From a virus: DNA of 10,862 nt. Every line of letters starts with the position of its first letter. Position 1 is the first letter of the stretch. The DNA lies in the UHGV virus genome UHGV-1695878. One strand, 5' to 3'. The position numbers and the translations under genes are program-made. Positions 1 through 10,862 of this stretch are shown here, one piece after another. The notes below the pieces were generated by a model. That model saw only the letters and a list, made by a program, of their open reading frames with translations. It was not told where the DNA came from and searched no databases.

Positions 1-82
1 AATTATTGATTTCCAGCGCCACCTGATGTTTCGCGGCTGCTTCAGCAACGGCTTTCACATCTATTTCATATTTGGGATTGCC
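1..82 (-). CDS. ycdX: 3' portion of a core-type chromosomal gene, PHP-family phosphoesterase (YcdX-like), apparently cut off at the island junction; continues leftward out of the window
   Basis: Reverse complement of 1..91 translates [30 protein letters not shown] with the frame open to the window edge. The stretch [27 protein letters not shown] matches what I remember of the C-terminal half of E. coli YcdX (there preceded by ISHP rather than YMIL). Codons are GCG/CTG/GTG-rich, unlike the AT-rich DNA to the right. Recall-based and unverified. Confidence 0.35.
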
Positions 83-121
83 TAATATCATGTACCCATC
101 AACACACGAGAGGATACAACG

Positions 122-391
122 ATGAACATTACCAAAGCAATCCATAACTATGCTCGCCGCCGTGGAATCGAACTTCAACTCGAAGATGAGCAGGTTAGAT
201 TCTGGGAGATAGAACAAGATTGTGAATGGATGTTCAGCTATTCGATTGCTCAATGTGGTTGCTTGTTCTGGAAAGGTAATGTGTATCTTCCTCGCGATAT
301 TAAAGAAGAACTTCCGGCGATGATTGGCACCGATAAGAAGTTAAAGGAAGTCTTAGATTTTATCTACAAAGAGTTTATTAGCAAGAAGTAA
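122..391 (+). CDS. hypothetical protein, 89 aa
   Basis: ATG 122, TAA 389..391; SD GAGGA about 7 nt upstream (gagaggatacaacgATG); followed by a hairpin terminator. No recognisable domain. An open minus-strand frame overlaps it, so strand choice rests on SD plus terminator. Confidence 0.55.
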
Positions 392-1011: not shown

Positions 1012-2691
1012 ATGAAAACTAAACTGTATTCGTATATTCGCTTCTCGTCTATGCGTCAGAGTGATGGTTCGAGTTATGAACGACAAATCAGGATGGCGAG
1101 AGAGATTGCGGCAAAGTATGACTTAGAACTGGTAAATGATTATCAGGATCTGGGTGTATCTGCGTTTAAAGGTGCTAACTCTAAAACAGGGGCGCTATCT
1201 CGTTTCCTTGATGCAATAGGTAGATCCGTTCCTGTTGGTAGCTGGCTATTCATCGAAAACTTGGACCGTTTATCCCGTGCCGATATTGTCAGTGCGCAGG
1301 AGTTATTCCTTTCAATCATCCGTAGGGGGATAACCATTGTTACTGGCATGGATAACAAGATCTACTCGCTTGATACTGTTACCGCTAACCCGATGGACCT
1401 GATGTTCTCCATCCTTTTATTCATCCGTGGTAATGAGGAAAGCCAGACTAAGCGCAATCGTACTAACTCAAGCGCACTGATTAAGATTAAAGCCCATCAA
1501 GAAAATCCCCAGAATCCGGCAGTGGCAATCGAGGAAGTTGGAAAGAATATGTGGTGGACGGATACCACTTCCGGTTATGTGCTGCCTCATCCTACATACT
1601 TCCCTGTTGTTCAGGAGATTGTGGAATTACGGAAGAATGGACGTTCAACCGCCGAAATACTGGATCACCTTAACGAGACATATGCACCACCACCAGCAGT
1701 AAGCAACAAGAAGCATTCAAAATGGTCACGGGCAATGGTTGAAAGGTTGTTTCATACCCGCGCTTTGATTGGTATCAAGGAAATATCTGTAGATGGCGTT
1801 AACTATGAGTTAAAGGATTATTACCCTCGTGTTATTGATGACCCTACGTTCTATCACCTTAAGAAAAATATTGGTGCTAGAGCATGGAACTTTGGAGACA
1901 AGGAAGAAGTTAAACCGATCCCCCTGCTTAGTGGTATTGGCCTATTGAAATGTGATCATTGCGGTTGCGCTATGGTTAAAGTGAAGGGAACGAACAAACG
2001 TTCTGACCAGTATCGTTATACATGTGATGCGACCCGTTCACGTAGACTTGATTGCGAGCATCCAAACTGGAGTTTTCGAGGTGATCAATTAGAGAAAGCT
2101 GTATTGCAATTGCTGGCTGATAAAATCTGGATTGCTGAGGACAAGGCTAATCCGGTTCCGGCGTTGAAAGTACAGGTTGATGAAATATCACGCAAGATTG
2201 ATAACCTGATTGCCCTTTCTGCTATGACAGGAGCAACGAAGGAGCTAGCCGATCAGATTACTACCCTCAATAGCGAGCGTGAAACACTCTACAATCAGAT
2301 CAAGATGGCAGAAGAGGAAATGTATTCTGTTGACTCTCAAGGCTGGGAGAAGCTCGCAGAATTTGATTTAGAAGATGTTTACAACGAGGAACGACTAAAG
2401 GTCCGGTTTAAGATTAAGCAAGCTCTAAAGCGGATCGGGTGTAGCAGGATTGACAGGAATAAAAACTTGTTTGTACTGGAATACATCGATGGAAAGACCC
2501 AGAGAGTTGTAATAGAAAATTCAAGAGGAACGAGGAAAGGACAAATCTTTGTCGATTTGAAAACTATCAATGATAGGCAGATTCTGGAGAGTAACGGGCT
2601 TGTTTTGCATCCATGTTTAGACATGCTGACAGATAAGAACTGGAAACCAGAAGAGGAAATACCAGGTCCATTACAGGAATTTGGAATTTAA
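1012..2691 (+). CDS. large serine recombinase (phage integrase type), 559 aa
   Basis: ORF track starts at TTG 997 (MFGNGM..); I prefer the first ATG at 1012, giving MKTKLYSYIRFSSMRQ. N-terminal resolvase-type catalytic domain (Y-x-R-F-S-S..Q with presumptive catalytic Ser; ENLDRLSR), central recombinase domain, Cys-rich zinc ribbon (CDHCGC...YTCDATRSRRLDCEHP) and C-terminal coiled-coil region: the architecture of large serine recombinases. Confidence 0.9.
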   Translation: MKTKLYSYIRFSSMRQSDGSSYERQIRMAREIAAKYDLELVNDYQDLGVSAFKGANSKTGALSRFLDAIGRSVPVGSWLFIENLDRLSRADIVSAQELFLSIIRRGITIVTGMDNKIYSLDTVTANPMDLMFSILLFIRGNEESQTKRNRTNSSALIKIKAHQENPQNPAVAIEEVGKNMWWTDTTSGYVLPHPTYFPVVQEIVELRKNGRSTAEILDHLNETYAPPPAVSNKKHSKWSRAMVERLFHTRALIGIKEISVDGVNYELKDYYPRVIDDPTFYHLKKNIGARAWNFGDKEEVKPIPLLSGIGLLKCDHCGCAMVKVKGTNKRSDQYRYTCDATRSRRLDCEHPNWSFRGDQLEKAVLQLLADKIWIAEDKANPVPALKVQVDEISRKIDNLIALSAMTGATKELADQITTLNSERETLYNQIKMAEEEMYSVDSQGWEKLAEFDLEDVYNEERLKVRFKIKQALKRIGCSRIDRNKNLFVLEYIDGKTQRVVIENSRGTRKGQIFVDLKTINDRQILESNGLVLHPCLDMLTDKNWKPEEEIPGPLQEFGI

Positions 2692-2727: not shown

Positions 2728-2757
2728 AAGGGGTACAGATGTACCCCTTTTTAATTT
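2728..2757. terminator. bidirectional rho-independent terminator between convergent genes
   Basis: Perfect palindrome AAGGGGTAC-agat-GTACCCCTT followed by TTTAATTT; lies between the recombinase stop (2691) and the stop of the minus-strand gene (2765). Confidence 0.6.
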
Positions 2758-2764
2758 AATTGCG

Positions 2765-3940
2765 TTAGGCAGCATCTAAGAGAGTATTAAAGTATTCATC
2801 CATTAAATCAGGACTGTCGTCATCAATACAGAAAAATTCCGGTTTATTGATGCCGTAGAAGTGAGTATGTAGCTTGAATGTATCGTCATCAAATACATCT
2901 TTCGGGGATACCCACATATTAGCCTCGTCCGGTTGATTGGTTAGGTAGTCATAAACCAGTTGCTGTAAGTGTGGTAACTCATCAATAGTCAGAGTTTCCG
3001 ACCATCCATCCTTGAAATCTTTGTAGGGTGCTGCATGAGTCTTGAAGCGTTGTTTTACTTCATGCTCTAAATCAACGGCTTTCCAACCATCCTCAAACTC
3101 ATGAGTAAAGATTAAGCGGTGAGTGAAGTTGCTCTTTCTGGTTTGCTCTCTCATTCGTTCTTCTGGTTTTCGGGTAGTGATTCCAAATTTAATAAATTTG
3201 TCATCTAATAATTGAATGTAGAAACTAGCCTTACCCTGATAAGTCCGGTTAGACAGTTGCACCAGTTGGTCTTTAATGCAAAGCGGACAAGTGAAAGAAT
3301 CAGCACATCTTAAATGAGATTCCCATTCGTGGTTATGTGACTTGCAATAGGTTTTAAATTTAACATCCTTTAGGTGTGGGGTGTTTATGGTAAATCCTTT
3401 GAAGATGTAAGGTGTAGTCTCGCAACGTGCATTGATGATTGTCTCTTTGTCCTTAATAACTTCATCAAAAGTCTTGCCACTTCTTACCCGTTGGGATTTT
3501 TCAGCCATACAGATTTTGCAATCAAAATCGAAATCATCTTTGAGAGCATGTAATAGAGATGGCGTCATGATTTGATTGTGTTCAGGGCACAAAACACGGG
3601 CTTTCGTTCTATTTCGCCCTTTCCATTCTCCTTGCCATCCGAGGAATTTCTTTCCCTTCTCATTACAACGAGATTCCATTTTCAACCATACAGCCTTTTC
3701 AGTCTGGAGTAACTCACCCCCGTTAGTATCTTCCAGTTTGCGTAATTTGTAGTCCTTATATTCTTGTGTGTCTAAATTGTAGATTCGAAAGTAAGTGTGA
3801 TTACCCTTCCACGGTAGGATAAATCCACCAAATACGAAAGCAGGTTCCAGTTTAGCGATGATTCGTTGTTGGTACTCTTCCGGCGATAAACCGCGAGTTT
3901 TCTTAACAAAAGGAATTTCGGCAGCGTAAGCAAGTTTCAT
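2765..3940 (-). CDS. Cys-rich protein with T5orf172 (GIY-YIG-like) domain, 391 aa
   Basis: ORF track start at 4051 is TTG; the first ATG at 3940 has a strong SD (AGAGGAAActactATG), giving MKLAYAAEIPF... Cys clusters (CPEH...CKIC; CKSH...CADSFTCPLC) and a T5orf172-type core FYIQLLDDKFIKFGITTRKPEERMREQ. Family assignment from motif recognition only. Confidence 0.7.
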   Translation of the reverse strand: MKLAYAAEIPFVKKTRGLSPEEYQQRIIAKLEPAFVFGGFILPWKGNHTYFRIYNLDTQEYKDYKLRKLEDTNGGELLQTEKAVWLKMESRCNEKGKKFLGWQGEWKGRNRTKARVLCPEHNQIMTPSLLHALKDDFDFDCKICMAEKSQRVRSGKTFDEVIKDKETIINARCETTPYIFKGFTINTPHLKDVKFKTYCKSHNHEWESHLRCADSFTCPLCIKDQLVQLSNRTYQGKASFYIQLLDDKFIKFGITTRKPEERMREQTRKSNFTHRLIFTHEFEDGWKAVDLEHEVKQRFKTHAAPYKDFKDGWSETLTIDELPHLQQLVYDYLTNQPDEANMWVSPKDVFDDDTFKLHTHFYGINKPEFFCIDDDSPDLMDEYFNTLLDAA

Positions 3941-3999
3941 AGTAGTTTCCTCTAAAATAATAAGCTCACTACTATTTATTAGAGAAAATTGTCTTGCTA

Positions 4000-4027
4000 T
4001 TGCATTCTCTATCTGAATGTGTATAAT
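4000..4027 (+). promoter_or_regulatory. sigma70-type promoter for the 189-aa/uvsW operon
   Basis: TTGCAT (4000..4005), 16-nt spacer, TATAAT (4022..4027); oriented toward ATG 4095, leaving a leader of about 60 nt with SD AAGTGAGGT. Confidence 0.45.
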
Positions 4028-4094
4028 ATGCGACCCTAAATCCCAAACCAACCATATTGAGGTTATGCCTATAAGTTAAAAAAGTGAGGTCTAT

Positions 4095-4664
4095 ATGATT
4101 CCAGTAATGGCTAAAGATATTGTTTTTACTCCTAAATCCTCCCGTGCTGCAACTCCATCGGCATTAGAACAACGCATTCTGACTCACATCAAAGAGAAGG
4201 ACTTACCGTTAGTCTTTCATGGCTTTCTGGGTGAGTTTAAAGGGCTTCATTCAAGAATTGCTCTTACATGTACCCGATGCGGTAATAGAGCCGACAAATC
4301 AGCTACTAACCTGCTTAATGAAGGTAAACGATGTGTTTGCTTCAATAGTGACTACTTTCAATATAAAGCGGGTGTGCCTTATCTCTATGTAATGAAGTCT
4401 GGGGATATTGGTAAATTTGGTGTTACAAAGTCAATCATCAAGCGACGTGTTAATCTGGGTGTACGCAATCCCGGTCATAACTTTGATATTGTCTTTGCTC
4501 GTGAAATGCCATCAATGAAACATGCTTTAGCCACTGAAAGAGCAATAAAGAGATTACTGGATGTGGGTATAGGCGGGATTGAATACGGCAAAACTGAAAC
4601 ATTCCACTACTGCAATAAATCACTAAACAATATAAAGAATATTGCAAGTGTGGAGTGGAACTAA
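4095..4664 (+). CDS. small zinc-ribbon + T5orf172 (GIY-YIG-like) domain protein, 189 aa
   Basis: ATG 4095 with SD GTGAGGT; Cys cluster CTRCGN...CVCF; then YLYVMKSGDIGKFGVTKSIIKRRVNLG...ATERAIKRLL, a T5orf172/GIY-YIG-like motif. Stop TAA 4662..4664 overlaps the uvsW ATG (TAATG), implying translational coupling. Confidence 0.7.
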   Translation: MIPVMAKDIVFTPKSSRAATPSALEQRILTHIKEKDLPLVFHGFLGEFKGLHSRIALTCTRCGNRADKSATNLLNEGKRCVCFNSDYFQYKAGVPYLYVMKSGDIGKFGVTKSIIKRRVNLGVRNPGHNFDIVFAREMPSMKHALATERAIKRLLDVGIGGIEYGKTETFHYCNKSLNNIKNIASVEWN

Positions 4665-6154
4665 TGCAAGATATTAAAATTCATTTTCAAGATTACAGTT
4701 TCGTTAAGGTTGATTGCTCTCCTTCCATCGGAATGGAATTAAGAGATTATTTCTCGTTTGAGGTTGAAGGGGCTAAGTTTAGCCCCCGTTACAAGTATTC
4801 CGGCTGGGATGGACGAATAAGACTGTTTACGCATGAAAATACCCTACCAATTGGACTATTAAAAACATTGGGTGTCTTCGTTAAAAATATGGGCTATTCA
4901 GTCTGGATTGACCCGCGATTGCTTGAGAAGGAAGATGTAACCAAAGACGCGATTAATGAATGGATTGATTCCTTAGAAGTGTATTCCGGTTCCAATAAAA
5001 TCAATCCTTACTGGTATCAGCGTGAAGCAGTCTTTCAGGGTATCCATAATCGCCGGAGAATGTTAGTTCTTCCTACCAGTGCGGGTAAGTCATTGATTGC
5101 TTGTATGCTGTCTCGTTGGTACTTAGAGCATTACACCGGAAAGGTGTTAATCATTGTCCCGACTACATCGCTAGTGGTTCAAATGAGGGATGATTTTATC
5201 GATTATCGGTTATTCCCTTATGAAGCAATTCATACAATGATGAGTGGTAGCGGGAAACATCCGGGAGAAAGGCTAATCACTGTTTCAACATGGCAATCAG
5301 CTTGCAAGATGCCCCCTGAATGGTTCAAACAATATGGAATGTTGATAGTTGATGAATCGCATAAGGCTAGTGCCAAAAATATTACCAATATCATTAACGG
5401 AATGAATCATTGCCAATTTAAGATCGGCATGACTGGTTCCCCGAAAGAATCAAAGTGCCATTTAATGCAGTATGTCGGGCTTTTCGGTGATATTTCTAAG
5501 ATCGTGAGTATTGACCGCCTGATGGAAGAAGGGCAGGTGACAAAACTGAAAATTAACTGTCTTTTCCTTCGTTATACCGATGAGGAATGTAGCGCGGTTA
5601 AGGGGAGAGAATATGCGGAAGAGATCAAGTATATTACATCTAACCCACGACGTAATAAGTTTGCTTGCAATTTGGCGCTAAAACTCGCTAAGAAGGGCGA
5701 AAACGTATTCCTGATGTTCCGCAATACTAAGCACGGAAAACTTATGTATGACGCGTTACAGAAGGTACACGACAAGGTTTATTATATTGACGGTGGAGTT
5801 AAGACAGAAGAACGTGATGAATTTAAGAAAATGGCGGAGGGTGACACCGGGATCATTTGTGTTGCGTCTTATGGTGTGTTCTCTACTGGTGTTTCAATTA
5901 AGAATTTGCACCATGTTATTTTCGGTCATCCAGTGAAGGAATCAACTATCGTTCGTCAGAGTATCGGTCGTGCATTGCGTAAACATGGTTCTAAGGATAT
6001 TGCAACGGTCTGGGATCTTATAGATAGCCTATGCATAATCGGTCGTAACGGAAAAGTCAAGCGCAAAAATTACGCGGTAAAACATGCACTTGATAGAATC
6101 CGCTATTATGTGACCGACAAATTCGACTATACAACTAAAACAATTGCTATATAA
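4664..6154 (+). CDS. uvsW: UvsW-type SF2 DNA helicase (T-even phage-like), 496 aa
   Basis: Start taken as ATG 4664 (ORF track begins at GTG 4655); GGAG 8 nt upstream. N-terminus MQDIKIHFQDYSFVKVDC plus SF2 motifs LPTSAGKS (Walker A), IIVPTT, DESH, MTGSP and QSIGRALRK. Colinear over its whole length with phage T4 UvsW as I recall it (MDIKVHF..., about 500 aa). Confidence 0.9.
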   Translation: MQDIKIHFQDYSFVKVDCSPSIGMELRDYFSFEVEGAKFSPRYKYSGWDGRIRLFTHENTLPIGLLKTLGVFVKNMGYSVWIDPRLLEKEDVTKDAINEWIDSLEVYSGSNKINPYWYQREAVFQGIHNRRRMLVLPTSAGKSLIACMLSRWYLEHYTGKVLIIVPTTSLVVQMRDDFIDYRLFPYEAIHTMMSGSGKHPGERLITVSTWQSACKMPPEWFKQYGMLIVDESHKASAKNITNIINGMNHCQFKIGMTGSPKESKCHLMQYVGLFGDISKIVSIDRLMEEGQVTKLKINCLFLRYTDEECSAVKGREYAEEIKYITSNPRRNKFACNLALKLAKKGENVFLMFRNTKHGKLMYDALQKVHDKVYYIDGGVKTEERDEFKKMAEGDTGIICVASYGVFSTGVSIKNLHHVIFGHPVKESTIVRQSIGRALRKHGSKDIATVWDLIDSLCIIGRNGKVKRKNYAVKHALDRIRYYVTDKFDYTTKTIAI

Positions 6155-6188
6155 CAAAAAAAGCGCCTCTAGTGGGCGCTTTAATTTT
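6155..6188. terminator. bidirectional rho-independent terminator between convergent genes
   Basis: AAAAAA-AGCGCC-tctagtg-GGCGCT-TTAATTTT between the uvsW stop (6154) and the stop of the minus-strand peptidase gene (6187). Confidence 0.6.
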
Positions 6189-6540
6189 ATCCATTCCATC
6201 TAGCCTTATAACCACGGCTATCAATGTGCGTAAAGGTTTTGTATTTGCCTAAACCATACTGATCGGGATATCTGCTATCGAGATAAGAGTGAACGATATC
6301 AGGAGAGACACCTTTCACTACAATATCAGCAGCCTTGCCCGTGATATGAATCGAACGAGAAGCGCCACCAACTTTCTTATTGTGTGCCGGACAACGGTTA
6401 GCACTGTTAATAACTACTGGTTTCCCGAAGTGTTCGCGTACATCCTCAAGAATTGCCAGTAATTCAGCGTCTACTGTATCCTGTCCGCACTTCCCACATT
6501 TGCATTCAAATTCTTTACGTTTGAAGTAACGAGAGATCAT
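6187..6540 (-). CDS. M15-family zinc peptidase (small phage-type cell-wall peptidase), 117 aa
   Basis: N-terminal FKRKEFECKCGKCG motif and zinc-ligand pattern H-x6-D ... H-x-D (SIHITGKAAD ... THID), typical of small phage Peptidase_M15 proteins; SD AGGGGGTAAT; no signal peptide. Confidence 0.75.
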   Translation of the reverse strand: MISRYFKRKEFECKCGKCGQDTVDAELLAILEDVREHFGKPVVINSANRCPAHNKKVGGASRSIHITGKAADIVVKGVSPDIVHSYLDSRYPDQYGLGKYKTFTHIDSRGYKARWNG

Positions 6541-8190: not shown

Positions 8191-10719
8191 TTAAGAAATA
8201 GAAATGCCAGTTGAGGCTTTCTTAGTTACAAGCACAGTCAAATCACTGATATATCCAATTGGGTTATAGTTGTTAACACCATCGCAAGAAACTTCAAACG
8301 TTAGCGTTACCGCCCCCTGTCCGGCTGGCATATCAATTACCCCACTGTACATACACCCACTGGTAGCGGTGCGGTCATATAGAACAGAGCCATTTTTCTT
8401 AACGATCAAACGGCATGTATCCCAAAGATCGTTATGTTCATAGCTGCGCATTGACCCATTGTGATGGATAGCTGGAATAATGATTTGTCGGTTAAATTTA
8501 TGGTCATCTTCAATACGCACTGTCAAAGTGCCGTTAGGCCAGTTGGCGTTTTTGTGCGGGAATCGCTTACCAACCGCTTTCACGAAGTCACCCCTAACCT
8601 GAGTAGCATCAAGCATACCCTTAATATCACAGCTAGAGTTAATCGTGACGTTGTTCAGAGTACCAGAATCAGCGGTAATATTTCCCCTGATCGTTGCGTT
8701 CATGAACGTAGCAGAGCCATTCTTGTTAATATGCCATCCGGTAGATCCGTTCCAGTTGGAAGACTGGATATAGTTACCGATTTTAGCATTATCAATTGCA
8801 CCATTTACAATCTTGGCATTGGTGATCGCGCCGTCCTGAATCTTCGCAGTATTGATCGCAGCATTGCCGATTTTAGCATTAGTGATAGCCGCATCATTAA
8901 TCTGGGCTGTCCCAATCGAGGCATTACGGATCATTGACCAGTCCATGTACACCTTGTTCCCTTCGACACCGAACGGAACAACACCCGCCGCGCCATCCTG
9001 CGGAGCTACCGCCAGTTTATCAGCCGTAAAGATGATTCTGGTTGGTTTAGCCGGATCATTGGTTGCGCTCATGTGAATACCAGCCACACGACCATCTGCA
9101 TTAACAGAAAGGTTGTATTTGCTGTTAATCGTCCCTGTCAGCTTATCGATCTTCGCTTCCGCTTCCTGGTTAACACCAGCGATCTTACCGTCCATTTCTA
9201 CCCGAACTTGTTCGATCTTAGTCGCGCTCGCTTGTTCGCTGGTAGCGATTACCTTTTTCAAATCGGTAACGGCTGCATCAACTTTCTTAGTAACGGTTCC
9301 GTTAGTTTCCGTTGTGATAGTCTTATGAAGTCGATCTAATTTGATGTCGGCATTCTCGCCAGCTTGAGCGATAGCATCAGCGATAGTTTCATCTAAGCGG
9401 TCTTGCAATCCGATCAAGTCCTCTAATGCTTCTTTGTCCTGATCGTCCCAGGTAATCGTAGATTTCATTTTCATGAAATACGGTTCAGACCAGACAGCAT
9501 CATCAGTACCGAAAATATCGTAGTGTGCCGCACGAAGATAATAATCACCGTCCGCAATATCAAAGGATGTATGACTAACGCTATTCGTGCTTACTGCCCG
9601 TGCATTAGAAAAATCCTGATTAGTTGCATACTGGATGATTGTACCCGCGTAATCTGACTCTAAAACATCACCATTCCAACTAACGAAAGCGGAGTTAAAG
9701 CCACCACGAGCGTTAAAACCTTTGATTGGTTTATGTTGTGGGTTAATCGCCACTAAACGCGCTGGGGCGCTCTGTGAGTTGTTATAGCCCCTAGCTGATA
9801 CTTCTACCGTCAATTCACGGGAAAGGCCGTTAAACTGGTTCATATCGAGCGTATAAGTCCATGATTCAGGATCGCGGGTACGGTACTGAATAGACTTACC
9901 AGCTTTGTTAGTGATCTTGATAATGTACGCATCAAACAAATCACTGAATTTATTCGTTTCGCCATTCACGACTACATCTAGTTTTTGCTGGTTTTCCCAT
10001 GCAATAGTAAGGTCATTACCTTTGAAGTAGTTCGGCTGGCTGCCAACGTTTTTGATTCGAATAACTGGAGTCGGTAACTCATAGGTAACAGTTGGATTCT
10101 GGTTAATCAGTTCCACCCAATCGGATCGCGCAATAATACCGAAAGCACATACACGATAATCATAAGACCTATCGCTTGCCAGTGCATTGATATTAAAAAT
10201 TTGCTGCGACGTCTGACCAGCTTTAATCCAGTTAGGTGATCCACTCACGCGGTAATCTACCTGGAAGCCATAACGGTTGAAATCTTCCGGTGCATCCCAT
10301 GTTAACGAGATATTTTTACCGTGGATAGTCTCGCCAGTTGCCTTAATTCTAAAGTTAGTCGGCGCTTGTACTGTCATTGAGTCCGGCAGTCCGGTCGGGC
10401 GATCATCTGGGTTTGCTGCATAGTTCAGATCGGTATAAATCTTGGAATTGTATTCCGTGGCGGTGATTGCCAGCATACCAGCGATACCAGAATCAATAGA
10501 ACGTTCAATCGCAGTAATACGCCAAAGGGAATTACTTAATTTTAATTCATCATGCGTAACGCTGATAACGTCCCAGACTTCGGCGGTGAATGCGTCGGTA
10601 GTCATGAAGCTGATAACCTGCGTTATACGTGATTTGTTGCGCTCTATGCTCGCCAGTTTATCAATCTGGGCTTTATCCTTAACAAAGCGATATTCTACGT
10701 CTTTAGCGATGATTCGCCC
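8191..10719 (-). pseudogene. lambda J-like host-specificity (central tail fibre) gene, 5'-truncated by IS1 insertion
   Basis: Frame open from 10734 down to stop at 8191..8193. The C-terminal ~170 aa align by eye with the lambda J receptor-binding domain ([16 protein letters not shown] vs lambda DMPAGRGNVILTFTLTS; [10 protein letters not shown] vs KKQALGISVV; [15 protein letters not shown] vs SNVTIAENCTINGTL); fibronectin-III-like repeats lie upstream. Only 842 codons are present against about 1130 for lambda J. The frame runs into the IS1 inverted repeat at 10720 and terminates inside it (TAA, complement of 10735..10737). The ATG at 10605 used by the ORF track is internal. Confidence 0.8.
8780..8929. 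repeat. five imperfect 30-bp tandem repeats inside the J-like gene
   Basis: Consecutive 30-nt units (gattttagcattatcaattgc.. / aatcttggcattggtgatcgc.. / aatcttcgcagtattgatcgc.. / gattttagcattagtgatagc.. / aatctgggctgtcccaatcga..) encoding 10-aa repeats of the form A-I-x-N-A-K-I-x-N-x. Confidence 0.6.
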
Positions 10720-10862
10720 GGTGATGCTGCCAACTTACTGATTTAGTGTATGATGGTGTTTTTGAGGTGCTCCAGTGGCTTCTGTTTCTATCAGCTGTCC
10801 CTCCTGTTCAGCTACTGAAGGCGTGGTGCGTAACGGTAAAAGTACTGCCGGACATCAGCGCT
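10720..10862 (+). mobile_element. IS1-family insertion sequence, left end (partial; continues beyond the window)
   Basis: GGTGATGCTGCCAACTTACTGATTTAGTGTATGATGGTG from 10720 is the IS1 left inverted repeat; the following sequence matches IS1 with a handful of substitutions. The 9 bp immediately outside (gattcgccc, 10711..10719) would be the target duplication if this is a simple insertion. Confidence 0.85.
10775..10862 (+). CDS. insA: IS1 InsA, 5' part (3' end outside window)
   Basis: GTG 10775; translates [29 protein letters not shown], the InsA N-terminus with its CPSC zinc-finger, a D-to-E variant of the K-12 form as I recall it. Confidence 0.8.

Follow-up and report, generated by a model that had tools for sequence, protein, structure and literature searches.

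A UvsW Helicase Gene of T4-Like Phages in an Accessory Module of a Temperate Enterobacterial Prophage Family

Related Systems

UvsW is encoded by a core gene of the lytic T4-like phages (PMC2993671). The T4 protein is made late, and it unwinds and shuts off origin R-loops (PMC3016281). When UvsW is expressed ectopically in E. coli, it is tolerated and acts on R-loops (PMC5909445). The window analysed here, a stretch of 10,862 nucleotides (UHGV-1695878), contains a uvsW gene whose product shares the domain order UvsW_N, RecA1, RecA2, and C-terminal helices with T4 UvsW (PDB 2OCA and 1RIF) and with the orthologues of Krischvirus (RB49, Phi1, and JSE). The proteins are collinear over their full length, and motifs I, II, III, and VI are kept. 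Motif II reads DESH in the window compared with DECH in the orthologues, and the C-terminal loop is 4 residues shorter than in T4-like phages. The settings differ as well. The window gene lies in a temperate siphovirus-type prophage, unlike its T4 and Krischvirus counterparts. It is served by a sigma70-type promoter via an upstream nuclease ORF, whereas T4 uvsW has a T4 late promoter. Finally, uvsW.1, uvsY.-2, uvsY, uvsX, and gp32, which belong to the T4-like setting, are absent from the window.

Several described systems resemble this locus in part. In the HEG islands that Barth, Dunham & Seed (2023, PMC10448857) describe in ICP1 and other lytic phages, genes with CapR and T5orf172 domains lie beside a core DNA-metabolism gene, nuclease genes sit at allele-exchange boundaries, and DNA-binding regions diversify fast. 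The same is seen in the window. Unlike those islands, the window island resides in a temperate prophage, and the exchange takes place between a temperate phage and lytic Straboviridae. Its nucleases also have no close phage copies, and their homing activity is putative.

PLE CapR and ICP1 Odn (PMC8096241, PMC8263062) are T5orf172/CapR-type proteins of integrated elements or phages that are directed against a specific rival virus. DNA exchange between those antagonists is evident, as it is between the window prophage and Krischvirus. PLE CapR, however, is a repressor that no longer has a nuclease domain, while the window proteins keep nuclease-type residues. The partner in the window, unlike in PLE and ICP1, is a helicase from the core genome of the presumed antagonist itself.

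P2 Tin is a prophage function against T-even phages that acts on gp32. Lambda Rex, e14 Lit, and P1 restriction are accessory lysogen genes directed against T4-like replication or expression (PMC2993671). Their activity has been demonstrated, whereas that of the window module is predicted, and they are not homologues of invader enzymes, unlike the window UvsW. Hachiman HamAB, PbeABCD, and type IV restriction systems (PADLOC) place an SF2 helicase beside nuclease genes in a mobile-element slot, as in the window. In PADLOC-DB v2, however, the window helicase gives only partial, generic matches to the helicase core (PbeA, 8.5e-12, 42 bits; HamB, 23 bits), and neither nuclease has a match. A known defence system is thereby ruled out. 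A search of NCBIfam likewise returned nothing specific for the module.

The UvsW Helicase

The uvsW ORF is intact, running from an ATG at 4664 to a stop codon at 6152–6154, with an in-frame GTG upstream at 4655. The UvsW_N domain (PF21241, 1.7e-34) occupies residues 3–83 of the product and covers all 81 profile positions. Pfam also detects ResIII, DEAD, and Helicase_C. In a phmmer search of the PDB, residues 3–494 align to residues 2–500 of T4 UvsW (2OCA) with E = 1.1e-182. Identity is about 52% to the Tequatrovirus-type protein (P0038) and about 80% to Krischvirus UvsW. The helicase motifs read PTSAGKS (I), DESH (II), TGS (III), and QSIGRALR (VI), and motifs I, II (DExH), III, and VI are kept in 11/11 alleles examined.

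The initial annotation had named this gene uvsW and regarded UvsW as typical of lytic phages. Both statements hold: outside this prophage family uvsW is a core gene of lytic T4-like phages, and the alignment, with its complete N-terminal domain and intact motifs, confirms the ORF as a true UvsW orthologue. Because the alignment runs end to end and includes UvsW_N, a generic SF2 helicase wrongly named UvsW is ruled out. The gene is not distinct from its neighbours in GC content (0.38–0.42). From the 52–80% identity to characterised orthologues, the protein is predicted to unwind R-loops, D-loops, and forks in an ATP-dependent manner and to carry out branch migration.

The Carrier Prophage

The carrier is confirmed as a temperate prophage in ycdX whose integrase is of the serine type and whose tail tip resembles that of lambda J (Table 1). 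This is the kind of carrier that the initial annotation had described, and the recombinase, the tail-tip domains, and the split host gene all agree with it. In the RefSeq annotation of the complete genome L001, a truncated ycdX ends at 15136 and the second half of the gene lies about 36 kb away. Across the complete genomes, an element of about 36 kb splits ycdX or hicB and contains terminase, portal, capsid, and tail genes. Homologues of the window recombinase also have a Resolvase domain.

The serine recombinase is found in 57/5426 E. coli genomes. uvsW is present in 17 of the approximately 57 E. coli genomes with a prophage of this family and in many Salmonella genomes, and about 70% of the family lacks the gene. 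Prophages of E. coli and Salmonella carry the accessory module in ten allele groups (the window and nine clusters at 90% identity). Of the chromosomal uvsW copies among the top 120 homologues, all that were checked lie in this one prophage family. No description of a prophage-borne uvsW or uvsY was found in the searchable literature.

The region between the integrase and endolysin genes contains different cargo in the window and in the relatives L002, L017, and L018. An integrase, a split attachment gene, a full set of virion genes, and variable cargo at a fixed position together mark it as an accessory (“moron”) slot. UvsX, gp32, recombinase, and replication genes were not recognised in the prophage. 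In the window, IS1 (10720–10862) truncates the tail-tip gene upstream; full-length relatives encode about 1216–1250 residues. The window prophage is thus probably defective, but its cassette is nevertheless intact.

Table 1. Features of the window, with positions counted from its first nucleotide.
Position	Strand	Feature	Evidence
1..136	-	3' fragment of host ycdX, prophage attachment junction	window 1-391 equals L001 15001-15391 at 99%
1012..2691	+	large serine recombinase, prophage integrase	Pfam Recombinase, Zn_ribbon_recom; phrog_95 integrase, 4.6e-63
2728..2749	.	bidirectional terminator-like hairpin at integrase/large nuclease boundary, left cassette edge	
2765..3943	-	large nuclease, CapR zinc ribbon and T5orf172/MUG113 (GIY-YIG superfamily), 392 aa	CapR 1.5e-9; MUG113 1.3e-5; phrog_681 endonuclease, 7e-43
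4000..4027	+	sigma70-type promoter (TTGCAT-16 nt-TATAAT) of small nuclease-uvsW operon	sequence reading
4095..4664	+	small nuclease-like protein, CapR zinc ribbon and T5orf172, 189 aa	CapR 2.1e-5; phrog_681, 2.9e-19
4664..6154	+	uvsW, full-length UvsW-family SF2 helicase, 496 aa	Pfam; phmmer vs PDB; motif check
4664..5464	+	prophage-specific 5' half of uvsW (UvsW_N, RecA1)	identity comparison
5465..6026	+	RecA2 part of uvsW, recently gene-converted by lytic Krischvirus sequence	identity comparison
6027..6154	+	prophage-type 3' tail of uvsW	57-61% nt to Krischvirus; 84-88% to E. coli prophage alleles
6160..6182	.	right cassette edge, bidirectional terminator where uvsW and the endolysin gene converge	
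6187..6540	-	Peptidase_M15_3 endolysin, first backbone gene right of cassette	Pfam 2.1e-29; phrog_894
8191..10605	-	J-like tail-tip protein, C-terminal 804 aa	Pfam Phage_Tail_Tip, Ig_GpJ_C

The Accessory Module

In this prophage family, uvsW follows two nuclease genes as the third member of a conserved module. It forms a predicted operon with the small nuclease gene, whose stop codon overlaps its start (TGATG), and the second nuclease gene is divergent. Apart from the deletion derivatives described below, all prophage alleles examined have the small gene directly 5' of uvsW. Similarity to cassette-less relatives stops at about 2768–2773 and, for L002, picks up again at 6152.

The large and the small nuclease both combine a CapR zinc ribbon (CxxC...CxC) with a T5orf172/MUG113 domain. 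Catalytic-type residues are conserved in the large protein, and its alleles are only 24–37% identical between sublineages. RefSeq homologues of the small protein start at 4107. Its T5orf172 domain scores 0.023 when the protein is searched alone, but it is detected in 9/10 family members (best 1.8e-4), and hhalign relates the small to the large nuclease family with 98.2% probability (E = 4e-14). The small gene has a dN/dS of 0.1–0.4. L006 and L017 have different alleles at the nuclease locus.

The initial annotation had also proposed a sigma70 promoter for uvsW. A conserved sigma70-type promoter is indeed present, but it lies in the divergent control region upstream of the small nuclease ORF and not directly before uvsW. 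It falls below the threshold of an automatic scan, since the -35 hexamer matches at only 3/6 positions. Both hexamers are nonetheless invariant in four diverged prophages (the window, L001, L006, and L007), and the spacer differs in L006. A search for operator-like repeats in the control region yielded no more than two short inverted repeats, whose meaning is uncertain. The T4 late promoter sequence TATAAATA occurs once in the window, at 659–666, which is chance level. No copy is close to the cassette, so infection-inducible expression via a T4 late promoter is ruled out.

Evolution of uvsW

The T4-like genes that are absent around the window uvsW survive in part in its relatives. UvsY is full length in L010, L011, L014, and L015 and a fragment in L006. 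UvsW.1 is kept in L022, and a gp27 remnant is found in L014 and L015. These relatives therefore show that a temperate enterobacterial phage family took up a contiguous T4-like block (uvsW, uvsW.1, uvsY.-2, uvsY, and some of the baseplate genes) into the slot between its integrase and lysis genes, and that the block was then eroded around uvsW. The neighbouring genes have decayed differentially, and uvsW has always been retained.

An identical double deletion in L008 and L009 removed both nuclease genes and left uvsW intact. Remnants of both genes remain (corresponding to window 3917–4021 and 4557–4664), and these two prophages are thus deletion derivatives. The remnants also rule out that uvsW alone represents the ancestral state, with the nucleases inserted later. 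The -10 element was lost in the deletion, so expression in these derivatives is uncertain.

The window allele is a mosaic that has recently recombined with uvsW of a lytic Krischvirus. Its 5' half has 91–94% nucleotide identity to the prophage allele of L006 (83% in one 150-nt bin), compared with 63–76% to Krischvirus. The relationship is reversed in the adjacent 562-nt tract, which is 95–99.3% identical to 53/56 Krischvirus records and 67–74% identical to L006. Against phage Whisky there are 7 mismatches in about 564 nt. In the tree of the C-terminal segment, the window tail groups with P0001, P0002, P0005, P0010, and P0011. The tract occurs in several independent complete genomes (L001, L008), which rules out an assembly chimera. 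An identity of up to 99.3% means that lytic and temperate viruses meet and exchange DNA at uvsW. Trees of different uvsW segments are incongruent, and a breakpoint recurs at about nucleotide 810 of the gene in at least four allele pairs. The N-terminal half of UvsW from G5211 groups with prophage alleles. When Salmonella alleles were compared with four phage loci, identity was 65–77% only and no recent tract was found.

Prophage uvsW is under purifying selection. All examined copies in the ten allele groups are intact, with dN/dS of about 0.1 and dS up to saturation. Gene conversion from phages alone could keep part of the ORF intact, and low dN/dS might simply have been imported with phage sequence. 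The latter is ruled out by the prophage-specific 5' half, which in E. coli prophage alleles gives a dN/dS of 0.03–0.15 by itself (dS 0.09–0.44). Selection on this half is as strong as on uvsW in lytic phages, where dN/dS is 0.1. Even after the nuclease double deletion in L008 and L009, the value is 0.077.

Possible Functions

The reading that we prefer, though tentatively and with more doubt than confidence, is that the module acts in the lysogen against superinfecting T4-like phages. The module would be expressed in the lysogen and would act upon T4-like superinfection. UvsW would then already be present at time zero, and origin R-loops and early D-loops or forks would be unwound too soon. 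With this early activity, the invader would change from origin-dependent replication to the recombination-dependent mode at the wrong time. Where UvsY is kept, it may upset the stoichiometry of UvsX and gp32, and the two site-specific-type nucleases may introduce breaks into the invader's unmodified DNA or take advantage of them. On balance, the prophage or the host would gain an edge in competition with T4-like phages.

To our knowledge, UvsY has no partner beyond T4-type UvsX and gp32. Since these are its described partners (PMC3016281) and the prophage has no recognised recombinase or replication gene, action during T4-like infection is indicated. The module has its own conserved promoter and flanking terminators and lies on the integrase strand, as expected of an accessory location. 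In addition, the Krischvirus tract with its identity of up to 99.3% proves that the prophage and its presumed target have been in physical contact. The initial annotation had proposed that origin R-loops or recombination intermediates (D-loops) of a superinfecting phage would be dismantled prematurely. As judged from the sequence, this idea is plausible: a lysogen-type promoter and an accessory slot agree with it, as do the selection on a catalytically intact helicase and the proven contact with T4-like phages. It is also in keeping with the published role of UvsW in shutting off origin R-loops (PMC3016281). It does not, however, explain the nucleases.

Several observations count against interference. 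The match to known defence families is limited to generic helicase similarity, no defence genes are recognised in the equivalent slot of relatives, and about 70% of the prophage family does without uvsW. Premature UvsW might also only delay T4-like phages, since recombination also starts their replication. In a fuller scenario, the temperate family acquired uvsW (some lineages also uvsY) from lytic T4-like competitors and would use it with the two site-specific nucleases as a dedicated weapon that mistimes or sabotages the invader's replication-recombination switch. The C-terminal half would be repeatedly refreshed by gene conversion from invaders, and the nuclease-proximal half would be held distinct, possibly to avoid the prophage's own nuclease. 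We consider this scenario somewhat unlikely.

The module may instead be a selfish nuclease island. Here, as in the HEG islands known from ICP1 and T4-like phages, the T5orf172 homing-type genes would travel with uvsW (with or without uvsY) as a core-gene flank, the prophage would serve as a reservoir for exchange of the island with T4-like phages, and the lysogen would gain nothing. uvsW would stay functional either because recombinant phages are fit only with a working allele or because it is overwritten time and again by phage alleles. Both flanking genes share the CapR and T5orf172 architecture of phage homing endonucleases (PMC10448857), and uvsW is a hotspot for nuclease genes in Krischvirus. 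In G5211, uvsW is immediately preceded by a GIY-YIG gene. In Whisky and JK32, a T5orf172 gene lies directly downstream, between uvsW and uvsW.1, and its product is the closest phage homologue of the large nuclease (30%, E = 4e-35). The nucleases show a homing-type polymorphism of presence, absence, and decay in L008 and L009 (deleted), L018 (frameshift), L002 (remnant), and L017. The incongruent trees, the recurring breakpoint, and the position of the G5211 N-terminal half point the same way. However, across 50,697 phage records the small ORF has no DNA match and the prophage-type 5' half reaches 74% at most, and neither nuclease has a phage relative above 30% protein identity. Therefore no shuttling is visible. 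The 5' half also co-diverges with the prophage backbone under strong constraint, uvsW stays intact after both nucleases are lost, and the core of three genes persists stably in the lineages of both E. coli and Salmonella. An island without benefit to the lysogen is, in our judgement, on the doubtful side.

A different explanation does without superinfection. UvsW could serve as a RecG-like helicase for branch migration, fork regression, and R-loop removal, either in prophage replication and recombination once the phage is induced or, as a lysogenic conversion, in host genome stability. T4 UvsW removes R-loops in E. coli and rescues rho, nusG, and rnhA rnhB defects (PMC5909445), and purifying selection, intact motifs, and a prophage with no recognisable replication or recombination genes would all suit such a role. 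Its absence from most of the family, on the other hand, means that uvsW is not needed for the life cycle, and the gene is flanked by terminators, on the integrase strand and away from the early region. The intact cassette in a probably defective prophage speaks against a replication role, though not against a host benefit. Retention of UvsY and linkage to two nucleases would have no explanation, and we regard this housekeeping function as decidedly unlikely. Very improbable is a role in preventing phage escape. T6 escapes E. coli Shedu by loss of function in uvsW (bioRxiv 10.1101/2023.08.10.552762; PMC13434031), and host-supplied UvsW with intact motifs could complement such escapers in trans, restoring the replication intermediates that the defence attacks and so blocking this way out. 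At about 52% identity to T-even UvsW, cross-complementation is uncertain, and the nucleases and UvsY are given no role. Least credible is that uvsW is inert, left over from an illegitimate recombination event with a T4-like phage, or that it removes Cas R-loops in the manner of an anti-CRISPR. Decay of the neighbouring T4-like genes would fit a relic, but intact copies in all ten allele groups and the selection data contradict it, and nothing ties the locus to CRISPR.

Significance

The locus is thus more than the single helicase gene of the initial annotation: it belongs to a prophage family with uvsW, two nucleases, uvsY or uvsW.1 in relatives, and a mosaic allele that recently recombined with Krischvirus. 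Temperate phages and strictly lytic T4-like phages are usually seen as separate gene pools. Here, a T4-like core gene of replication and recombination is kept by selection in a temperate family, and the tract of up to 99.3% identity to circulating Krischvirus phages provides direct evidence that DNA recently passed from a lytic myovirus to a prophage.

Should the module really interfere with T4-like phages, it would amount to a defence made out of the attacker's enzyme. It would also allow a natural test of the long-standing model in which UvsW timing controls the T4 switch from origin to recombination replication. If the module is a selfish island, prophages would be usable as reservoirs by such islands. 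In either case the finding is relevant to phage therapy, as the module occurs in about 0.3% of complete E. coli genomes and candidate therapeutics include Krischvirus phages.

Identity of the helicase and its carrier

The initial annotation had proposed that the gene at 4664-6154 encodes UvsW. Its product starts with PF21241, the N-terminal domain specific to UvsW (1.7e-34), and continues with the Pfam domains ResIII/DEAD and Helicase_C; PHROGs places it in DNA helicase families. The top match among all PDB chains is T4 UvsW (2OCA, E = 1.1e-182), with residues 3-494 of 496 aligned, and helicase motifs I, II, III, and VI are all found. This near full-length alignment and the presence of PF21241 bear out the assignment: by sequence, the protein belongs to the UvsW family.

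The carrier is also as first described, namely temperate, with a serine integrase and a lambda J-type tail protein. The window covers one end of a prophage that in complete E. coli genomes is about 36 kb long, splits ycdX or hicB by insertion, and encodes terminase, portal, capsid, and tail proteins. The remainder of the prophage has no recognisable genes for replication or a recombinase. Among 5426 complete E. coli genomes, 57 contain the integrase of this family and 17 contain uvsW, every time in the chromosome and annotated as intact.

In the window's strain, the tail-tip gene is interrupted by an IS1 end that shares 96% identity with IS1 of P1 and other records, and the remaining ORF encodes just 804 C-terminal residues of some 1216-1250. 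This prophage is probably defective, though its uvsW cassette is intact. Near the attachment junction, the ycdX fragment overlaps at its end with an 89-residue ORF that is 99% conserved in the E. coli prophage locus L001 and matches phrog_6147 (1.2e-31), a family of unknown function. An 81-residue ORF between the junction and the integrase has a signal-peptide-like N-terminus (MKKIIAGVVLALGLVGAANA) and may be a further accessory gene. The motif just 5' of it occurs at chance frequency.

Features of the window
Feature	Coordinates	Strand	Remarks
ycdX 3' fragment	1-136
89-aa ORF	122-391	+
TATAAATA motif	659-666
81-aa ORF	701-946	+
Large serine recombinase	1012-2691
Left hairpin	2728-2749		terminator-like, bidirectional
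Large nuclease	2765-3943	-	392 aa; CapR-type zinc ribbon + T5orf172/MUG113
Inverted repeats	3939-3988		ATAGTAGT/ACTACTAT; TTTCCTCTAA/TTAGAGAAAA
Promoter	4000-4027		TTGCAT-16 nt-TATAAT
Small nuclease	4095-4664	+	189 aa; CapR-type zinc ribbon + T5orf172/MUG113
uvsW	4664-6154	+	intact, 496 codons
Krischvirus-like tract	5465-6026		within uvsW
Right hairpin	6160-6182		terminator-like, bidirectional
M15 endolysin	6187-6540
Tail-tip protein	8191-10605		lambda J C-terminal domain; IS1 cut at 10720
IS1 end	10720-10862

A three-gene module

The two hairpins enclose three genes, encoding a large nuclease, a small nuclease, and UvsW; the stop codon of the small nuclease gene overlaps the uvsW ATG. The nuclease domain of both proteins belongs to the GIY-YIG superfamily, and profile-profile comparison relates the two families at 98.2% probability. 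Their architecture is that of T5orf172 homing endonucleases in ICP1 and other phages (PMC10448857).

The promoter lies within a divergent control region. Its two hexamers are invariant across four prophages despite differing spacer and adjacent nuclease gene, and no T4 late promoter was found near the module. Two short inverted repeats in the same conserved region overlap the large nuclease gene at its start and may form an operator or have arisen by chance.

The nucleases evolve faster (dN/dS 0.1-0.4) than uvsW, and the large nuclease is replaced wholesale between lineages, its alleles being 24-37% identical. For instance, that of the window and that of another E. coli prophage (L006, 4264-5277) share 28% amino acid identity, with differences mostly in the central, presumably DNA-binding, region. 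Of the sequences flanking this exchanged gene, the integrase is 86% conserved in nucleotides, and the divergent promoter region has 92% mean column identity.

In relatives L002, L017, and L018, different cargo or mere remnants fill the module's slot between the integrase and endolysin genes. Where uvsW is lacking, an acidic protein of about 150 residues, rich in E, D, and V (L017 6071-6517; L018 6081-6569), shares the slot with T5orf172 genes. In L002, a 65-residue fusion remnant (14818-15015) joins the acidic protein to the nuclease C-terminus.

Selection on uvsW

Among prophage alleles, uvsW as a whole has a dN/dS of 0.03-0.17, and dS reaches 0.9. Because phage-derived sequence could import conservation, the 5' half, to which no phage has a closely similar sequence, was also analysed alone. 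Its dN/dS is 0.03-0.15, comparable with the 0.1 found between lytic Krischvirus phages. In two prophages, L008 and L009, the same pair of deletions (window 2774-3916 and 4022-4556) has removed both nucleases and left uvsW intact; since then, uvsW dN/dS has been 0.077. By these evolutionary criteria, the helicase is functional.

Capture from a T4-like phage

A search of 5.8 billion proteins finds chromosomal UvsW clusters of E. coli and Salmonella at 65-97% identity (P0001-P0003, P0005, P0008-P0012), each with hundreds of members, and next UvsW of T4-like phages at 51-58%. All seven clusters whose context was looked up (P0003, P0005, P0008-P0012) sit in the same prophage family and share the core of large nuclease (-), small nuclease (+), and uvsW (+). 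By sequence, P0001 and P0002 match L001 and L006, two E. coli loci where the core is also present.

The right flank differs between lineages. Full-length UvsY is found in L010, L011, L014, and L015, the last two also retaining some 250 nt from the gp51/gp27 region. L022 has UvsW.1 and a uvsY.-2-like fragment, L006 a 55-residue UvsY fragment with 86.6% nucleotide identity to Krischvirus, and the window no T4-like remnant. Since the retained genes agree with the T4-like order uvsW, uvsW.1, uvsY.-2, uvsY, gp25, gp26, gp51, gp27, a contiguous T4-like segment must have been captured and later reduced, with uvsW intact in all uvsW-bearing copies examined. The Salmonella UvsY (L011 11530-11940) is itself mosaic, its N-terminal half matching Krischvirus UvsY at nearly every residue and its C-terminal half diverged. 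That of L015 is intact, yet only 47-51% identical to all other UvsY.

The closest phage homologue of the large nuclease is a T5orf172 gene located between uvsW and uvsW.1 in Krischvirus phages Whisky and JK32 (30% identity, E = 4e-35). In the related phage G5211, a GIY-YIG endonuclease gene lies immediately upstream of uvsW. Thus, uvsW is a hotspot for nuclease genes in lytic phages as well.

Exchange with lytic phages

By sliding-window comparison, uvsW of the window is a mosaic of three parts. The first, nucleotides 1 to about 800, is 91-94% identical to the L006 allele (83% in one 150-nt bin) and 63-76% to Krischvirus, with at most 74% identity to any phage record. In the following tract, 7 of about 564 positions differ from Whisky, and the final 130 nt or so return to the prophage type. 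Of all phage records, 56 genomes match the tract, all of them Krischvirus, and 53 do so at 95-99.3% identity; the small nuclease gene has no DNA match there. Because the tract is common to the whole genus and present in only some prophage alleles, its transfer was recent and directed from lytic phage to prophage.

Trees built from the N-terminal, middle, and C-terminal segments disagree with one another, and some Salmonella alleles cluster with P0013, which represents another T4-like lineage and lies on a 168-kb contig of canonical synteny. The breakpoint near nucleotide 810, at the RecA1/RecA2 boundary, is shared by at least four allele pairs. This could reflect a break hotspot, or only chimeras at the domain boundary may be viable. 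Independent pairs from the window, L019, L020, and L021 place it at window ~5465-5475 (uvsW nt ~805-815).

RB49-type phages are not among the listed carriers of gene 42, which encodes dCMP hydroxymethylase (PMC2993671), so their DNA is presumably unmodified and could recombine with that of the chromosome. The N-terminal half of G5211 UvsW (L003 4001-4800) groups with prophage alleles (81% protein identity, versus 71-74% for other Krischvirus) at a nucleotide identity of just 70-76%, which hints at a shared allele lineage or at an earlier transfer from prophage to phage.

Possible functions

These comparisons of sequence show an accessory helicase that is catalytically intact by its motifs, under selection, with a lysogen-type promoter, and in contact with T4-like phages. 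The strongest pointer to action during superinfection by such a phage is the retention of UvsY in some lineages; its known partners, UvsX and gp32, come from T4-like phages only (PMC3016281). In T4, UvsW is made late and stops origin-dependent replication by unwinding the R-loops at origins (PMC3016281); a helicase present beforehand could mistime this switch, as the initial annotation suggested. Interference by the module with T4-like superinfection is the favoured but tentative reading, less likely than not.

A selfish nuclease island with the prophage as reservoir is a somewhat weaker candidate. UvsW is tolerated in E. coli and active on R-loops there (PMC5909445), in line with a housekeeping, RecG-like or R-loop role for prophage or host, which is unlikely. 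Phage T6 evades Shedu through loss of uvsW, and a resident copy might make such defences escape-proof, a very improbable function. An inert relic or an anti-CRISPR role is more improbable still.

PADLOC does not recognise the module, and a literature search combining UvsW or UvsY with prophage found nothing relevant; the family is known and its prophage setting undescribed. Conceptually nearest to it are the homing endonuclease gene (HEG) islands found in lytic phages and the weapons derived from HEGs in the conflict between ICP1 and PLE. Gene flow from lytic phage to prophage and selected retention of an enemy's core gene are both solid and unusual.
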